The position numbers were made by a program. From contig JBBIGR010000004.1 of NCBI GenBank assembly GCA_037447435.1, positions 128,001-192,000 of the forward strand: 64,000 nt of DNA. Direction: 5' to 3'. Shown piece by piece: positions 54,301 through 57,300 of this stretch. Source of the stretch: Fibrobacteria bacterium (GTDB lineage: Bacteria > Fibrobacterota > Chitinivibrionia > Chitinivibrionales > FEN-1185). Within the stretch, counting starts at the first letter, position 1, and each line of letters opens with the position of its first letter.

Positions 54301-57300
54301 GCTGTGCGTAGCGCTCCTGAATCTTGACGATTTCCTGCTCGCTTACCGTCGTATTGATCTTTCGTTGTGAGAGAATAGATACGGTGACAAATGCAAATAA
54401 AAGCAAAGAGCCGAAAATTATGGCAAAGCGCGGTTCGATGCGCGAAAGCAGGTTCCGCTTATATTCTTTTGGGAAATTCCCAAGCGGCCCTGCTTCTGCA
54501 GGATGATGCATGAAAAATATGCCCGATTGCGCAGCCACGTACTTATCCTTTTCTGTAAACAACAAGATTCATGGACGGATAACCGGCCTGGCCGCAGGTG
54601 TACATAATTCTCGTAAGAACATTGTACGGAATTGCGACATCTCCCTGTATGGATATCTTGCCTGAGAATTCGGTTTTGAACATTGCGGAAGATTTTTTCG
54701 CCTCGTCGGAGTATTTTTTCAAAACTTCATAGAGAGGCTGTATCATGAAATCCTTTTGCGCCATGAGATCGGAATAGGCTTTGGCATCGATGACGATTTT
54801 ATTTTCCACCATAATGGTGGATTTTGAAACCATGACATTCAGGGCCTGACCGGCATTTTTTTCAATCGACGATGTCGGCAATAGTAAATTTGTCGCAGGA
54901 GTAACGAGCTGTCCCTGCGCAGAATAATTCTGCAAAAGGAATACCACCATGAGCGTAAACATATCGATCATGGACGTGATATTGAGCCTAACGGTGCCGT
55001 CACCGCGTTTACGTCTGCGTCGTCGTATTGATTGTCCTGCCGGCATTATTGTATTATCCCTCCGGCAATGGAAACATTAGGGAACATGGTCACGTTTCCG
55101 TCGGGTGTCCGGGTGCCGCGTGCGGCATCCATGACAGCCACCACCGTTTTATAGGCGATTTTATCTTCGGCAACGATTTTTATCGCATCGTTATCGGGAA
55201 ACATTTTGCCCGGATCGATTTTTTTTGTTTCATAAGCTCTGCCCAATTGAAACAGACTTGCGTCCTGCGGAATGGAAGGATAATACGCCCGCATGATATC
55301 GTTCAGCACTTTTTTCTTTACATCAGCAAGTTTGGCATTAAGCCCGACATAATCGTATTCACCGTTTATCAATGGAATATCCGGCTGTTTTTGAGCCATG
55401 GTTGCGCCTTGCGCTGCAGATTTGTCTTCCTGCTTGAAATAATGGAATAAAGTAAATCCTTTTTGCGTGATCACGACGCCCAATTCCAATTTCGTTTCCG
55501 AAGTTGCGCCGGCTCCGCCGCCACCGCCGCCGCCTTGCGTCGCTTCAGGCAATTTCAATTCTATTGCCCCCATCTTTACGAATTCGGATGAGGTGAGCAA
55601 AAACGGGATAAGCATAACCATGAGGTTCAACATGGGCGTGACATCGGTGTCCGCCGCTTCTTCTTCATTGCCGCTTCTCCTCACCAGTGAGTTTAAAGCT
55701 TTGCTGGTGACCGTCGGTGGATTAAGATTGTTGAGAATCGCAATTGCATACCGGTCGATTTCGACCAGTGCAGTGTCGACACGCGAACGCAGGAACGAAT
55801 ACATCATGACACAAGGAATACTGATTGACAATCCAACAAGCGTCGAATTCATTGCAGCGGAAATTCCCGCAGCAAGCAAAGCCGATTTTTCTATTGCGGC
55901 AACACCGGGACGCCCAACCGCGGCAAACGACATTATCAAGCCGAAAACAGTACCGAGCAATCCCAGCAACGTCGAAACGTTTCCAAAAGCAACAAGCAAG
56001 CTAAGCCTTTTTTCCATCGAAGCGGCCATGTGTGTGGATTCTTCCCCCATTGCTCCGGCAATGAGATGCGGCTCTACTTGCGCTTTTCGTATCCCGGCTC
56101 CGAGTATGCGGGGAAGAGCCCTATGCCCGCCCGAGGCGCAGATTCGATATGCTTCGTCAAGGTTTTTATCATCGATGAGTTTTTTTATTTTTTCAAAAAA
56201 TCCGACCGCATCATAGTCGGTACGGCGGTTTATCGCAAGCCATCGCTCAACGGTAATCAAAATGGCTGCGATGCCGAGTGCGGAAAGCAGCCACATGAAG
56301 AAAAACGCTTCATGCGCAGGAAGAAAACATTTTAATAATTCGCCGAAAATGCCCATTTAGATATTGATCTCTTTTATCAATTTATTGTCGGTAAAAATTT
56401 TAATGTTGTTGTGCGTTACGTGCAGACCAACGCCTTCCTTAAGCTGCGATGCGCTGATATGATATTTATGCGTTTTAAAAGATTTTTCAATAAGCGCATT
56501 GAGCACACGAACAGAATATTCGTCCAATTCATCGATTATTTTTTGGGTTTTGGCTTTTAAAAACGCATAAATCATGATGGAGGTAATGGCAACCGACAAC
56601 CCGGTAAACGTCGAGTTCATGGCTGTCGCGATACCAGAGGCAAGAAGTTCGGACTTTTGTGCGGCATCGATACCCGGACGACCGACCGCGGCAAACGACA
56701 TGATAAGACCGTACACGGTTCCTAAAAGTCCTAACAATGTTGCGACATTACCGATGACTGCCAGGTAACCCGTGCGTTTTTCGAGCAGCGGAATTACCTT
56801 TAGCATAGACTCGTCTATAGCATTGCGGATACGTTCGGCACCGGTATTAGCCTCTTCAAGACCGGCCTTTACTACGCCGGCCAATGCCATTCTTTTTCCA
56901 TTATCGCAAAGCTTGAGAGCGGAGGGCACATCGTCTTTTTGCAGCATTCCGAGAATTTCACGGATAAATTGGTTCGAACGGAAGCCGGACTTGCTTGTCA
57001 AGAACACAAAACGTTCTATGATTATTGCCAAGGCAAATACGCCGGTAACTAAAATTGCCCACATGAAAAGAAATGCATCTGATTGAGGGCTGAAAGCGTG
57101 AAGAAGTTTGAGAATAAACTCCATGAAGTTTCCTCCGTTTAAATAGCGTAGACGAAATTGTTGATCAGCACTAATTCTAATCTATAAATAAAATATAATA
57201 TTATTCAATAAAGAAAACGATTTTATGAAAATACCTGAATTTTTTATCAATTGTCTGTAGACCGATTTTTCTCATATCCGACGTTTATTCGGCCGATGAA

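Follow-up and report, generated by a model that had tools for sequence, protein, structure and literature searches.

An open reading frame that joins an ExbB-type and an ExbD-type module in a single chain lies within a tightly packed operon of a Fibrobacteria bacterium, with the gene order exbB, exbB::exbD, exbD and a GltG/AgmX-type tonB-like gene. The window analysed here comprises 64,000 nucleotides (contig JBBIGR010000004.1, positions 128,001 to 192,000), and the features discussed are listed in Table 1. The best explanation, to which we give about an even chance, is that four free ExbB subunits, one fusion protein and one separate ExbD, referred to as ExbD-b, would form an asymmetric 5:2 unit that does not rotate without limit.

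Table 1. Positions of the fusion gene, its parts and the adjacent operon genes in the window.
Feature	Size or residues	Position	Strand	Basis
Free exbB/tolQ-like gene	255 aa	56357..57124	-	PF01618, E 5.1e-26
C-terminal tail of free ExbB	residues 216-255	56360..56479	-	alignment
exbB::exbD fusion gene	436 aa	55046..56356	-	ORF, ATG to TAA
ExbB/TolQ module of the fusion	residues 1-211	55724..56356	-	Pfam, alignment, Foldseek, AF2
Connector	residues 212-238 (27 aa)	55643..55723	-	alignment, AF2
Fourth TM helix, ExbD-a pore helix	residues 239-258	55583..55642	-	alignment, AF2
Asn244 codon		55625..55627	-	equivalent to ExbD Asp25, TolR Asp23
ExbD-a periplasmic part	residues 259-436	55049..55582	-	Pfam, AF2
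Free exbD-b	167 aa	54543..55046	-	PF02472, E 5.9e-14
Asp28 codon of exbD-b		54963..54965	-	aligned to ExbD Asp25
tonB-like gene, AgmX/PglI (GltG) type		53471..54565	-	Pfam, NCBIfam

The fusion gene and its distribution

The genome-wide survey's note had described this gene as a one-frame ExbB-ExbD fusion, and both Pfam domains were indeed found on the one protein: PF01618 (MotA_ExbB) matches residues 82-200 (E 5e-23, 81.7 bits versus a cut-off of 22.9) and PF02472 (ExbD) matches residues 231-415 (E 2.2e-12, 47.6 bits versus a cut-off of 25.4). The single-chain arrangement is also topologically consistent, as had been proposed, because the C-terminus of ExbB and the N-terminus of ExbD are both cytoplasmic, which makes head-to-tail joining possible. 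The ExbB module contains three transmembrane (TM) helices (hydrophobic segments 14-42, 118-155 and 171-189), and in the AF2 model TM3 extends into the cytoplasm as a helix spanning residues 154-211 (pLDDT 76-88 for the module). Threonines T136 and T172 are invariant and align with the pore threonines of E. coli TolQ in the TM2 and TM3 motifs GTVWG and ATAIG, and the TM2/TM3 channel motifs of the fused module are likewise invariant in the homologue alignment, while the Glu of TolQ TM3 is replaced by Ala. The best Foldseek match of the module is E. coli TolQ in TolAQR (E 9.3e-7), with target-normalised TM-scores of 0.64-0.76 against the TolQ chains. Judged by the pore threonines, the channel motifs and the predicted TolQ fold, the ExbB module thus looks functional. 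Two residues set the fused copy apart from both free and unfused ExbB: Arg202, which takes the place of a Glu and constitutes a fixed charge reversal, and Pro213. The latter lies in the connector, whose length is nearly fixed (indels of 1-2 residues) and whose conserved features are P213-P214 (P213 in 121/121 close homologues), R226-R227 and an acidic run. The AF2 monomer shows no regular structure for the connector (pLDDT <50).

The fusion had further been reported as conserved, and this was borne out. All of the best 120 of 362 protein clusters (E<=1e-5) carry both PF01618 and PF02472, with lengths of 401-449 aa, and, as counted from the search rows, the fusion is present as one open frame in 55 of 201 Fibrobacterota genomes, with an identity of 74-75 % within the genus that declines to 36-38 % in the most distant members of the phylum. 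It is missing from the other 146 genomes, including all 78 of the largest family, and is therefore dispensable for many relatives. For a comparison of loci, 80 were kept from 182 relatives, and 41 of these have the fusion as one open frame. Another 38 loci, carrying other phylum labels, gave a tblastn match over residues ~1-436, yet contain two separate genes. An extension of the fusion to KSB1 and Calditrichota was accordingly rejected: the matches L041-L080 are pairs of adjacent genes, except for L048 and the broken locus L060. In the literature searched, which left most subscription journals outside its coverage, we found no paper on a natural ExbB-ExbD or TolQ-TolR fusion. It might be suspected that two ordinary genes only look fused because a sequencing or assembly error erased the stop codon or frameshift separating them, since the two genes are just 2-3 nt apart in unfused relatives and the related locus L060 is frameshift-broken. 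However, the same frame recurs in 41 independent loci, 55 genomes and at least 120 clusters, from 100 % down to 36 % identity and with a conserved connector, and such an artefact can practically be dismissed.

The Asn-type ExbD module and its operon partners

The ExbD half of the fusion matches solved ExbD and TolR chains in a profile search (7ajq_F, E 8.5e-5), and the AF2 model places its TM helix at residues 239-256. Its periplasmic part has a conserved IELKLP motif, a Gly-rich stretch and an ExbD-type alpha/beta domain that is folded at residues 290-431 in the AF2 model (pLDDT ~70-86). An alignment with unfused homologues revealed a helical insertion of ~35 residues in this domain, which occurs only in the fused lineage. 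The survey's note had called this ExbD complete, which did not hold up, as the equivalent of Asp25 is an asparagine. In the profile alignment, the Asn244 column corresponds to D25 of 6tyi_Y and D23 of 9ddm_Y, and hhalign pairs it with the aspartate of ExbD-b with a probability of 97.3 %. Asparagine is found here in 121/121 close homologues, in 39/39 unfused sequences (the 38 unfused loci and frameshift-broken L060) and in 120/120 unfused database homologues. The fused genome loci carry N in 35 cases, S in 4 and G in 2, and Asp in none of the 41. Misalignment of the six non-Asn sequences was ruled out; they have a true Ser (L032, L034, L037 and L038) or Gly (L039 and L040). A wider search returned 1,551 representatives at 50 % identity (E<=1e-10), and the best 150 of these show N in 124, S in 6, G in 6, D in 8 and E in 1 (a doubtful alignment), with 5 being fragments. 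Because Asn244 aligns to D25/D23 and the position is never Asp in the fused loci, the fused module is, by sequence, an ExbD homologue but not a canonical proton-carrying ExbD, and we place it in an Asn-type subclass, 'ExbD-a'. No paper on an ExbD without the conserved aspartate was found in the literature searched, most subscription journals being outside its coverage.

The neighbouring genes carry the domains that had been reported for the four-gene cluster (MotA_ExbB, ExbD and TonB_C), and the genes are packed without gaps: the TAA of exbB is followed by the ATG of the fusion with 0 nt between them, and fusion and exbD overlap in a TAATG. The free ExbB consists of a channel module (residues 1-~215) followed by a lineage-specific tail of 40 residues, and its gene immediately precedes the fusion in 40 of the 41 fused loci, the single miss being a locus that begins at a contig edge. 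The tail is strongly conserved, with K248 and K251 in 40/40 sequences, and is missing from the ~216-aa ExbB of unfused loci. AF2 models the free ExbB with a mean pLDDT of 83 and the tail as three short strands (pLDDT 53-68). The second ExbD, ExbD-b, has its aspartate in all 76 ORFs found (38 from fused loci and 38 from others), D28 is invariant in the ExbD-b alignment, and a profile search against solved ExbD chains (6tyi_Y, E 8.9e-7) aligns it to Asp25.

The last gene of the operon, whose true start is perhaps the GTG at 54538, encodes a protein with one TM helix, a linker rich in Lys/Glu and Gly, and a TonB_C-like C-terminal domain (Pfam TonB_C, 36.4 bits versus a cut-off of 24.6), which also matches the AgmX/PglI C-terminal domain NF033768 of NCBIfam (86.6 bits versus a cut-off of 40). 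It is present downstream in 35 of the 41 fused loci, and contig ends account for five of the six misses; in L037 there was no detectable tonB-like match downstream of the fusion. A transglutaminase-like gene located upstream (57247..58680) was considered as a member of the system and rejected, since it is conserved in the four closest loci only. Among the recurring neighbours of the fused loci there was no conserved cargo, outer-membrane or partner gene. These neighbours comprise SecA, a PilZ protein, a flavoprotein, a SIS protein, metabolic genes and two proteins without a Pfam match. Promoter-like sites (20 versus 11.5±3.5 expected) and terminator-like sites (12 versus 10.3±3.0) gave nothing interpretable.

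Origin of the fusion

Each of the 38 unfused loci contains a single exbB followed by exbD-a, exbD-b and a tonB-like gene, and three paralogous loci in the host genome (C2, C8 and C39) also have separate genes, an Asn-type exbD and then an Asp-type one. From these unfused relatives and the organism's own paralogs, the Asn/Asp pairing of ExbD proteins is seen to be older than the fusion. The unfused operons, in genomes labelled KSB1, Calditrichota and other phyla, are 29-39 % identical to the fusion over its whole length; their orthologous genes follow one another in the same way, and there too ExbD-a carries the Asn and ExbD-b the Asp. They differ in that ExbB (~216 aa) and ExbD-a (~176 aa) are separate proteins, only one exbB is present, and the 40-residue ExbB tail and the ~35-residue ExbD-a insertion are lacking. 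An ExbB tree was built from 55 rows, comprising the window, 18 of the 41 fused loci, 13 of the 38 unfused loci and four paralogs from the same genome. The fused ExbB modules form one clade (support 99/96), and the branching of the free copies mirrors it. The fusion thus arose once, in one Fibrobacterota ancestor. The deep nodes are poorly resolved, and the fused and free ExbB may be sister duplicates, or one of them may have been recruited from a paralogous cluster; the tree fits either.

The fusion itself can be explained, on the aligned sequences, by the loss of one stop codon. The connector is gaplessly colinear with a read-through of the unfused arrangement (exbB, stop, 3 nt, ATG, exbD-a), 10 of the 38 unfused loci have this 'stop + 3 nt + ATG' in frame, and the N-terminal motif of free ExbD-a, MAY(R/K)PSxRR, can still be made out in distant fusions. 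The ancestral operon, made up of exbB, exbD-a (Asn), exbD-b (Asp) and a GltG-like tonB, survives in the KSB1/Calditrichota-labelled genomes and in the three paralogous loci. In the fused lineage, an extra exbB copy appeared, and the copy adjoining exbD-a lost its stop codon, so that the connector consists of the ExbB C-terminus and the cytoplasmic tail native to ExbD-a, while the ExbB that stayed free gained its conserved cytoplasmic tail.

The fusion might instead be a device for co-translation that ensures 1:1 synthesis and membrane insertion, after which a cytoplasmic protease would cut the connector and release a normal free ExbD-a for an ordinary ExbB5:ExbD-a:ExbD-b motor. In its conserved sequence and length, the connector resembles what might be expected of a processing site, its unstructured state in the AF2 model would make it accessible, and the unfused orthologues evidently work with a free ExbD-a. 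However, the conserved connector residues are largely those native to the ExbD-a N-terminal tail, and their conservation therefore needs no extra explanation. No protease gene is conserved nearby, and a mere aid to expression would leave both the extra free ExbB with its co-evolved tail and the fixed charge changes unexplained, which makes this an unlikely reading.

The fused copy has longer branches in the tree, its ExbB module evolving at about 1.5-2 times the rate of the free copy. This rate is one of three points that would suit a fusion acting as a brake or scaffold. Its complexes would then be locked and non-conducting and would act as an anchor, a nucleus for assembly or a regulator, with the force being generated by complexes of free ExbB and ExbD-b alone. 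The others are the lack of a carboxylate at the Asp25 position and the expectation that a tie between ring and pore helix locks a rotary unit. On the other hand, every one of the 38 unfused loci, like the three paralogous loci of the same genome, pairs an Asn-type ExbD-a with an Asp-type ExbD-b, so that the Asn partner has the look of a regular part of the working unit rather than of a brake specific to this lineage. Moreover, the pore helix and channel motifs of the fused ExbB are very strongly constrained. We consider a role as brake or scaffold to be improbable.

A proposed asymmetric motor and its relation to known systems

The cluster had been described as TonB-type, but it is more similar to the AglR-AglQ-AglS-GltG core of Myxococcus than to a classical Ton system. 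All cluster scores for the NCBIfam equivalogs exbB, tolQ, exbD and tolR were far below cut-off (exbB 37.7 versus 206 and ExbD_2 16.5 versus 123), as was that for TonB (27.6 versus 448). No TonB-dependent transporter was detected among the ORFs scanned at 53471-60937 or among the scanned recurring neighbours, two of which lack a Pfam match. The host genome has a separate classical Ton locus with short ExbB, ExbD and TonB proteins beside a TonB-dependent transporter (C1), and also a separate Tol-Pal locus (C10). In common with Agl-Glt, the operon combines a TolQ-like gene with two TolR-like genes that differ from each other and with a TonB-like protein bearing the AgmX/PglI domain (NF033768). 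In an AlphaFold model of Myxococcus AglR5:AglQ:AglS, an AglQ/AglS heterodimer is located inside an AglR pentamer, and the AglS N-terminal tail reaches the cytoplasmic end of the channel (PMC11761067, cited from an excerpt). The essential proton-binding site has been attributed to AglQ, which can be compared with Asp28 of ExbD-b (PMC9120999, excerpt). Several copies of Agl-Glt 'core complex' clusters have been described in a Fibrobacteres genome, according to an excerpt of Luciano et al. 2011 (PMC3169522).

There are also differences from Agl-Glt. One TolQ-like protein is covalently joined to a TolR-like one, and the operon has another TolQ-like gene that is free; the TonB-like protein has no FHA domain and scores 117.7 bits against the GltG equivalog cut-off of 650. 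No GltD/E/C-type TPR genes adjoin the fusion cluster; the paralogs on C8 and C39, in contrast, are flanked by large TPR genes. Furthermore, the Asn-type exbD comes first here, while the Myxococcus order is aglR-aglQ-aglS. With E. coli ExbB5-ExbD2 and TolQ5-TolR2 the system has the families, the folds and the pore threonines in common. However, canonical Ton and Tol motors contain an ExbD or TolR homodimer in which both chains carry the Asp and no covalent link exists, whereas the present operon encodes two different ExbD-type chains; a single one of them has the Asp, and its counterpart is tied to a ring subunit. The two equivalent, free, Asp-bearing pore helices that characterise the 5:2 rotary stators (MotAB, ExbBD and TolQR) are therefore absent. 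An operon with one ExbB, two different ExbD proteins and then tonB is found in the Bacteroidota member Riemerella anatipestifer (ExbB2-ExbD21-ExbD22-TonB2), and such exbB-exbD-exbD-tonB operons are unfused and linked to iron and hemin uptake (PMC4446302, excerpt).

In the asymmetric motor that we favour, the operon products would form a 5:2-type stator of four ExbB, one ExbB~ExbD-a and one ExbD-b. Its pore helices would be those of ExbD-a, with Asn244 and tied to a ring subunit, and of ExbD-b, with Asp28 as the sole proton carrier. Because one pore helix is tied via about 27 residues, the ring would not be able to turn endlessly around the pore dimer, and with rotation limited in this way, proton flow through the single Asp would drive a reciprocating stroke of limited angle or a non-rotary conformational cycle. 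The motion would pass to the GltG-type TonB-like protein and onward to an outer-membrane or periplasmic partner. We infer that such a covalent tie would fit poorly with a 5:2 complex that rotates without limit; by rough geometry, the ~27-residue connector, modelled with low confidence, could perhaps tolerate a partial or full turn. Glu258 at the periplasmic end of the pore helix is present in 41/41 fused proteins, with Q, E or T in unfused ones, and could serve as an alternative protonatable group; a 'single proton site' may for that reason be wrong for the fused lineage.

Three observations were counted in favour of a hetero-oligomer: the free ExbB in 40 of 41 fused loci with a tail found only there, the Arg202 versus Glu charge reversal of the fused copy only, and the pore heterodimer of the published AglR5:AglQ:AglS model. 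Complex prediction for the ExbD-a module with ExbD-b gave a score of 0.37, compared to 0.00 for the best of three controls, with a contact agreement of at least 79 % between runs and a partner pLDDT of at least 64. Of 157 solved complexes, 116 reached the mark used for such predictions, as did 2 of 215 mismatched pairs; at scores of 0.60 or less it was reached by only 18 of the 157 solved complexes and by both passing mismatches. Since ExbD and TolR dimers have already been solved, the pass may reflect likeness only, and the prediction lends weak support to a pairing of the ExbD-a module with ExbD-b.

Other architectures can be imagined, such as two fusions and three free ExbB, with ExbD-a supplying both pore helices and ExbD-b bound elsewhere, or an ExbD-a helix that enters the adjacent pentamer and so links motors into arrays. 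The connector has no confident fold in the AF2 model, and Agl-type motors have been reported to cluster at focal adhesions (review PMC9120999, excerpt). Nevertheless, a pore with two Asn residues would have no Asp, yet Asp28 of ExbD-b is invariant. A connector of 27 residues would be short for reaching the pore of a neighbouring pentamer, and the Myxococcus model has one of each TolR-like chain in its pore (PMC11761067, excerpt). Such arrangements therefore seem very unlikely.

The asymmetric 4:1:1 assembly, if true, would fix the rotational register and could aid structural work on asymmetry of the proton path.

Whether ExbBD, TolQR and Agl-type motors turn in the way flagellar stators do is still debated on the basis of structures, and to our knowledge their rotation has never been observed directly. 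The fusion is a natural test of the need for free spinning, with a tied helix that lacks the proton-binding Asp, and built-in controls are provided by the unfused KSB1/Calditrichota-labelled orthologues and by three unfused paralogs in the same genome. If the intact fusion chain is functional, unlimited rotation is not required in this class. A further-reaching and doubtful reading is that Asn/Asp-heterodimer 5:2 motors as a class, Agl-type included, work by a reciprocating stroke with a single proton site and not by continuous rotation; the pore helix could then be welded to the ring because it never needs to move far. If so, this would concern a class whose members number in the thousands across Fibrobacterota, KSB1, Calditrichota and Gammaproteobacteria-labelled records, and the fusion would amount to a crosslinking experiment done by nature that speaks against rotation as a universal feature of the MotAB/ExbBD/TolQR superfamily. 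The large Asn-type ExbD subclass, if so far undiscussed, matters for the annotation of two-ExbD operons.

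Layout and conservation of the exbB::exbD gene

As listed in the table, the fused gene lies in a cluster with a free exbB, a free exbD and a tonB-like gene. The window itself spans 128001-192000 of the contig. The genome-wide survey's note had described a single-frame ExbB-ExbD protein in a cluster of the order exbB, fusion, exbD and tonB-like gene. The frame and its coordinates proved right, with both Pfam domains on one protein, MotA_ExbB at residues 82-200 (81.7 bits against a cut-off of 22.9) and ExbD at residues 231-415 (47.6 bits against 25.4), and the Pfam assignments of the neighbours bore out the order. 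The TAA of the free exbB directly abuts the ATG of the fusion, and the fusion stop overlaps the start of the downstream exbD as TAATG; as read from its sequence, the four-gene cluster is packed as an operon.

Features of the fused locus, with positions counted in the window
Feature	Position	Strand	Description
exbB::exbD fusion	55046..56356	minus	ATG-to-TAA frame, 436 residues
Free exbB	56357..57124	minus	MotA_ExbB (Pfam), 255 aa, upstream of fusion
Free exbD (exbD-b)	54543..55046	minus	ExbD (Pfam), 167 aa, downstream of fusion
tonB-like gene	53471..54565	minus	TonB_C (Pfam), 364 aa, downstream
Glu258 of fusion	55583..55585		Periplasmic end of ExbD-a pore helix
Free-ExbB C-terminal tail	56360..56479		Residues 216-255 (40 residues); same region in L001-L040 (loci of relatives)

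In a protein collection clustered at 90 %, the fusion matched 362 clusters at E<=1e-5, and both Pfam domains were present in 120/120 of the best 120 of these, with lengths of 401-449 aa. A scan of species-representative genomes yielded 80 loci of relatives, and in 41 of them the fusion is a single uninterrupted frame of 425-443 aa, with the copies in L033 and L036 truncated at contig edges. Relatives labelled Chitinispirillum, such as L035, are among the carriers. When 201 genomes of the phylum were searched in six frames, one open frame covered query residues ~1-436 in 55 of them by a count made by hand, the window's genome included; in 4 of the 55 the copy is cut by contig ends. Beyond these, the copy in genome G157 is broken by a frameshift and that in G165 is truncated at a contig end. 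By family, carriers numbered 8/8 in f1, 22/46 in f3, 4/4 in f4, 7/7 in f5, 3/4 in f6, 2/2 in f7, 1/1 in f11, 1/1 in f12, 4/4 in f13, 1/1 in f14 and 2/4 in f16, and in the same search the fusion was not found in f10 (0/78), f15 (0/22), f2 (0/8), f17 (0/4), f18 (0/2), f20 (0/2), f19 (0/1) and f8 (0/1). G194, an unpublished f15 genome without the fusion, is included in these tallies. Carriers within the genus were 74-75 % identical and the most remote ones 36-38 %, in agreement with the figures reported in the survey. Judged by its conservation, the fusion is a real, conserved protein. An artefact origin was refuted by the conserved open frame (41 loci, 55 genomes, 120 listed clusters).

Frames are broken in L060, a fusion-type locus on a 907-kb contig, and in G157; in L060 the breaks run across all four genes, a pattern that suggests indel errors in a long-read assembly more than a pseudogene. 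Several cluster-bearing records carry odd labels (Proteobacteria, Bifidobacteriales, Cytophagia, Deferribacteres and Actinomycetota; L032, L034, L039, L042, L051 and others). In a tree of ExbB modules, L032, L034 and L039 fell among Fibrobacterota, and L059 and L063 among KSB1/Calditrichota. The oddly labelled records are probably mis-binned or mislabelled MAGs.

The JGI annotation names the fusion proteins 'ExbB/TolQ / ExbD', so the two-domain architecture is, as the survey had stated, visible in public databases. Full-text searches, covering few subscription journals, brought up no report of a naturally fused ExbB-ExbD, TolQ-TolR or MotA-MotB, and none of an ExbD without the Asp. In the ESM Atlas, three clusters of 303-379 aa carry PF01618 in 92-100 % and PF02472 in 39-86 % of members, with Acidobacteriota and Pseudomonadota as the commonest phyla; with scores of 0.85-0.88 they are leads only, and may represent independent, shorter ExbB-ExbD fusions elsewhere.

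The two modules of the fusion and the free ExbB

The N-terminal module aligned to E. coli TolQ over TM2 and TM3, with both pore threonines (T136 and T172) kept and the TM3 Glu of TolQ replaced by Ala. These threonines and most of TM2/TM3 were invariant in an alignment of 21 sequences. The AF2 model was confident at residues ~20-211 (pLDDT 76-88), with a TM3 helix spanning residues 154-211, and the best Foldseek matches were the TolQ chains of E. coli TolAQR/TolQR structures (E 9.3e-7, TM-score <=0.76, target-normalised), with ExbB next. This half of the fusion is a genuine channel subunit. Among the few fixed sites that set the fused copy apart from free and unfused ExbB are Arg202, which is Glu in the free (39/39) and unfused (38/38) proteins, and Pro213 at the start of the connector.

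The survey had called the protein a complete ExbB joined to a complete ExbD; the second half of this description does not hold, as Asn244 replaces the proton-carrying Asp. This residue lies in the TM helix at the column of that Asp: the profile of ExbD-a, as we call the Asn-type module whether fused or free, pairs Asn244 with D25 of E. coli ExbD (6tyi_Y) and D23 of TolR (9ddm_Y), and hhalign matched its column to the Asp in the profile of the downstream ExbD, ExbD-b (probability 97.3 %). Asn was found at position 244 in 121/121 proteins (the window protein and 120 homologues), and the 41 fused genome loci have N in 35, S in 4, G in 2 and D in 0. The Asp of ExbD-b was present in 76/76 ORFs found, D28 being invariant. 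By these alignments, the C-terminal module of the fusion is not a canonical ExbD. A caveat to this is Glu258, which is invariant in the fused proteins (41/41) and Q, E or T in unfused relatives, and which could be a lineage-specific protonatable group.

The free exbB is located directly upstream of the fusion in 40/41 fused loci, and the remaining locus begins at a contig edge. Its C-terminal tail outdoes much of the protein in conservation, with K248 and K251 in 40/40, and neither the ExbB of unfused loci nor that of the paralogs in the window's own genome has it. AF2 placed three short strands in the tail at modest confidence (pLDDT 53-68). The tail might close off the pentamer on its cytoplasmic side or serve as a binding site for a partner.

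The Asn/Asp pair in unfused loci and the origin of the fusion

In 38 loci, labelled KSB1, Calditrichota, 'Cytophagia', 'Deferribacteres' and others, the genes are unfused, with a single exbB (~216 aa), an exbD-a (~176 aa), an exbD-b (~164 aa) and a tonB-like gene. ExbD-a has Asn in 39/39 cases when the frameshift-broken L060 is added to the 38 unfused loci. Asn is also found in the database homologues of unfused ExbD-a (120/120) and in a divergent Asn subtype (120/120), whose relatives bear the labels Gammaproteobacteria, Woeseiaceae and Proteobacteria. A profile searched exhaustively against 1.84 billion representatives at 50 % identity gave 4,070 matches at E<=0.001 and 1,551 at E<=1e-10; the best 150 comprised N 124, S 6, G 6, D 8, E 1 (a doubtful alignment) and 5 fragments, and 11 of these 150 were of fusion length (408-439 aa). 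The window's own genome holds three more loci, on contigs C2, C8 and C39, in each of which an Asn-type and an Asp-type ExbD accompany an ExbB and a TonB-like gene. The Asn/Asp pair predates the fusion and has a broader distribution.

The same genome also carries a Tol-Pal locus (C10), a classical short-ExbB/ExbD/TonB locus beside a TonB-dependent transporter (C1), and a MotA with MotA_N together with a MotB with plug and OmpA domains (C6; L086, 110251-111847). Seven stator-type sets are thus present within one 5-Mb genome.

A spacer of exactly 3 nt separates the exbB stop from an in-frame exbD-a ATG in 10/38 unfused loci; the spacer is 2 nt in 14. Translation of an in-frame unfused pair through the stop (as X) gave a gap-free, colinear match to the fusion connector. 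The motif MAY(R/K)PSxRR, found at the N-terminus of free ExbD-a, persists in distant fusions as KNYKPSERR and KGYRPSIRR. Therefore, the connector (residues 212-238) consists of the old ExbB C-terminus and the native cytoplasmic tail of ExbD-a. The fusion contains no added linker, and a single stop-codon loss would suffice.

A maximum-likelihood tree was built from 55 ExbB modules, namely the fused and free copies of the window and 18/41 fused loci, the ExbB of 13/38 unfused loci, and three paralogs and the TolQ from the window's own genome; other fused and unfused loci were omitted for size. All fused modules formed one clade (99/96), on branches ~1.5-2 times longer than those of the free copy. 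The free copies mirror the fused branching order, so the two genes have been inherited together from a single event onwards. The deep nodes were unresolved, and the tree therefore does not establish the fused and free copies as sister duplicates.

Type of system and a proposed tied motor

The TonB-like protein passed the NCBIfam model of the AgmX/PglI C-terminal domain (86.6 bits against a cut-off of 40), in line with the type assigned in the survey. Its best full-length match was the Myxococcus gliding protein GltG, far under the cut-off (117.7 against 650). The C8 and C39 paralog loci have TonB-like genes of the same AgmX/PglI type, and large TPR proteins flank both; Wza/Wzc-like polysaccharide export genes also follow the C8 cluster. 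A STAS-domain gene (Pfam E 1.8e-13) lies between the Asn-type and Asp-type exbD of the C8 paralog (L081:5254-5628). On C2, the exbB, exbD-a, exbD-b and tonB set is directly followed by a gene for a 961-aa protein (L082:4958-7843) with an N-terminal TonB_C, then CarboxypepD_reg, Plug and an outer-membrane barrel, resembling a TonB_C::TBDT fusion.

Recurring neighbours of the fused cluster were SecA, a small PilZ protein, a flavoprotein, a SIS protein and two proteins without a Pfam match; no conserved TonB-dependent transporter or other candidate cargo gene was seen among them. The PilZ gene (Pfam E 1.1e-8) is located just downstream of the tonB-like gene in 15/41 fused loci (e.g. L001:9003-9326) and is absent from the corresponding place in the window; this neighbour hints at a c-di-GMP input. 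Downstream of the window's cluster, a run of small genes (50770..53166, minus strand) is sulfur-carrier-like by eye, with a Gly-Gly-ending protein and ThiF/MoeB-like, JAMM-like, DsrE-like and TusA-like proteins.

Several copies of 'core complex' clusters of the AglR-AglQ-AglS/GltG type have been reported in a Fibrobacteres genome (Luciano et al. 2011, PMC3169522). A 2025 model places an AglQ/AglS heterodimer in an AglR5 pore, together with GltG (PMC11761067), and a heteromeric pore dimer is therefore already a published idea. A review ascribes the essential proton-binding site to AglQ (PMC9120999). Neither a carboxylate-free partner nor a covalent tie between ring and pore was found in excerpts of these three Agl-Glt papers.

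Pairing of ExbD-b with the ExbD-a module (residues 218-436) found weak support in a complex prediction, which scored 0.37 against 0.00 for the best of three controls. The mark was reached by 116/157 solved complexes and 2/215 mismatches, and at <=0.60 by just 18 of those 157 and both passing mismatches. The runs shared at least 79 % of contacts, with a partner pLDDT of at least 64. Since ExbD/TolR dimers have been solved, the pass may reflect likeness only.

In the mechanism that seems most likely to us, the simplest assembly to draw on all conserved parts would combine one fused ExbB~ExbD-a with four free ExbB and one ExbD-b; of the two helices in the pore of this 5:2 unit, one would carry Asp and the other, tied to the ring, Asn. 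Another stoichiometry, or a chain linking neighbouring motors, seems unlikely to us. From the secondary structure of the AF2 model, we roughly estimate that the TM3 helix runs ~22 residues below the membrane, ~33 Å at 1.5 Å per residue, and that the 27-residue connector, at most ~95 Å when extended and modelled at pLDDT <50, must return up to the pore. Cleavage of this connector after synthesis would give a normal motor, an explanation we regard as improbable. We also think it unlikely that the fusion serves as a locked brake or scaffold. For the intact, tied 5:2 unit, the estimated slack would be enough for a swing, perhaps a turn, and not for sustained one-way rotation. With a single Asp and a tied partner, a reciprocating stroke would fit this motor better than a continuously rotating engine.
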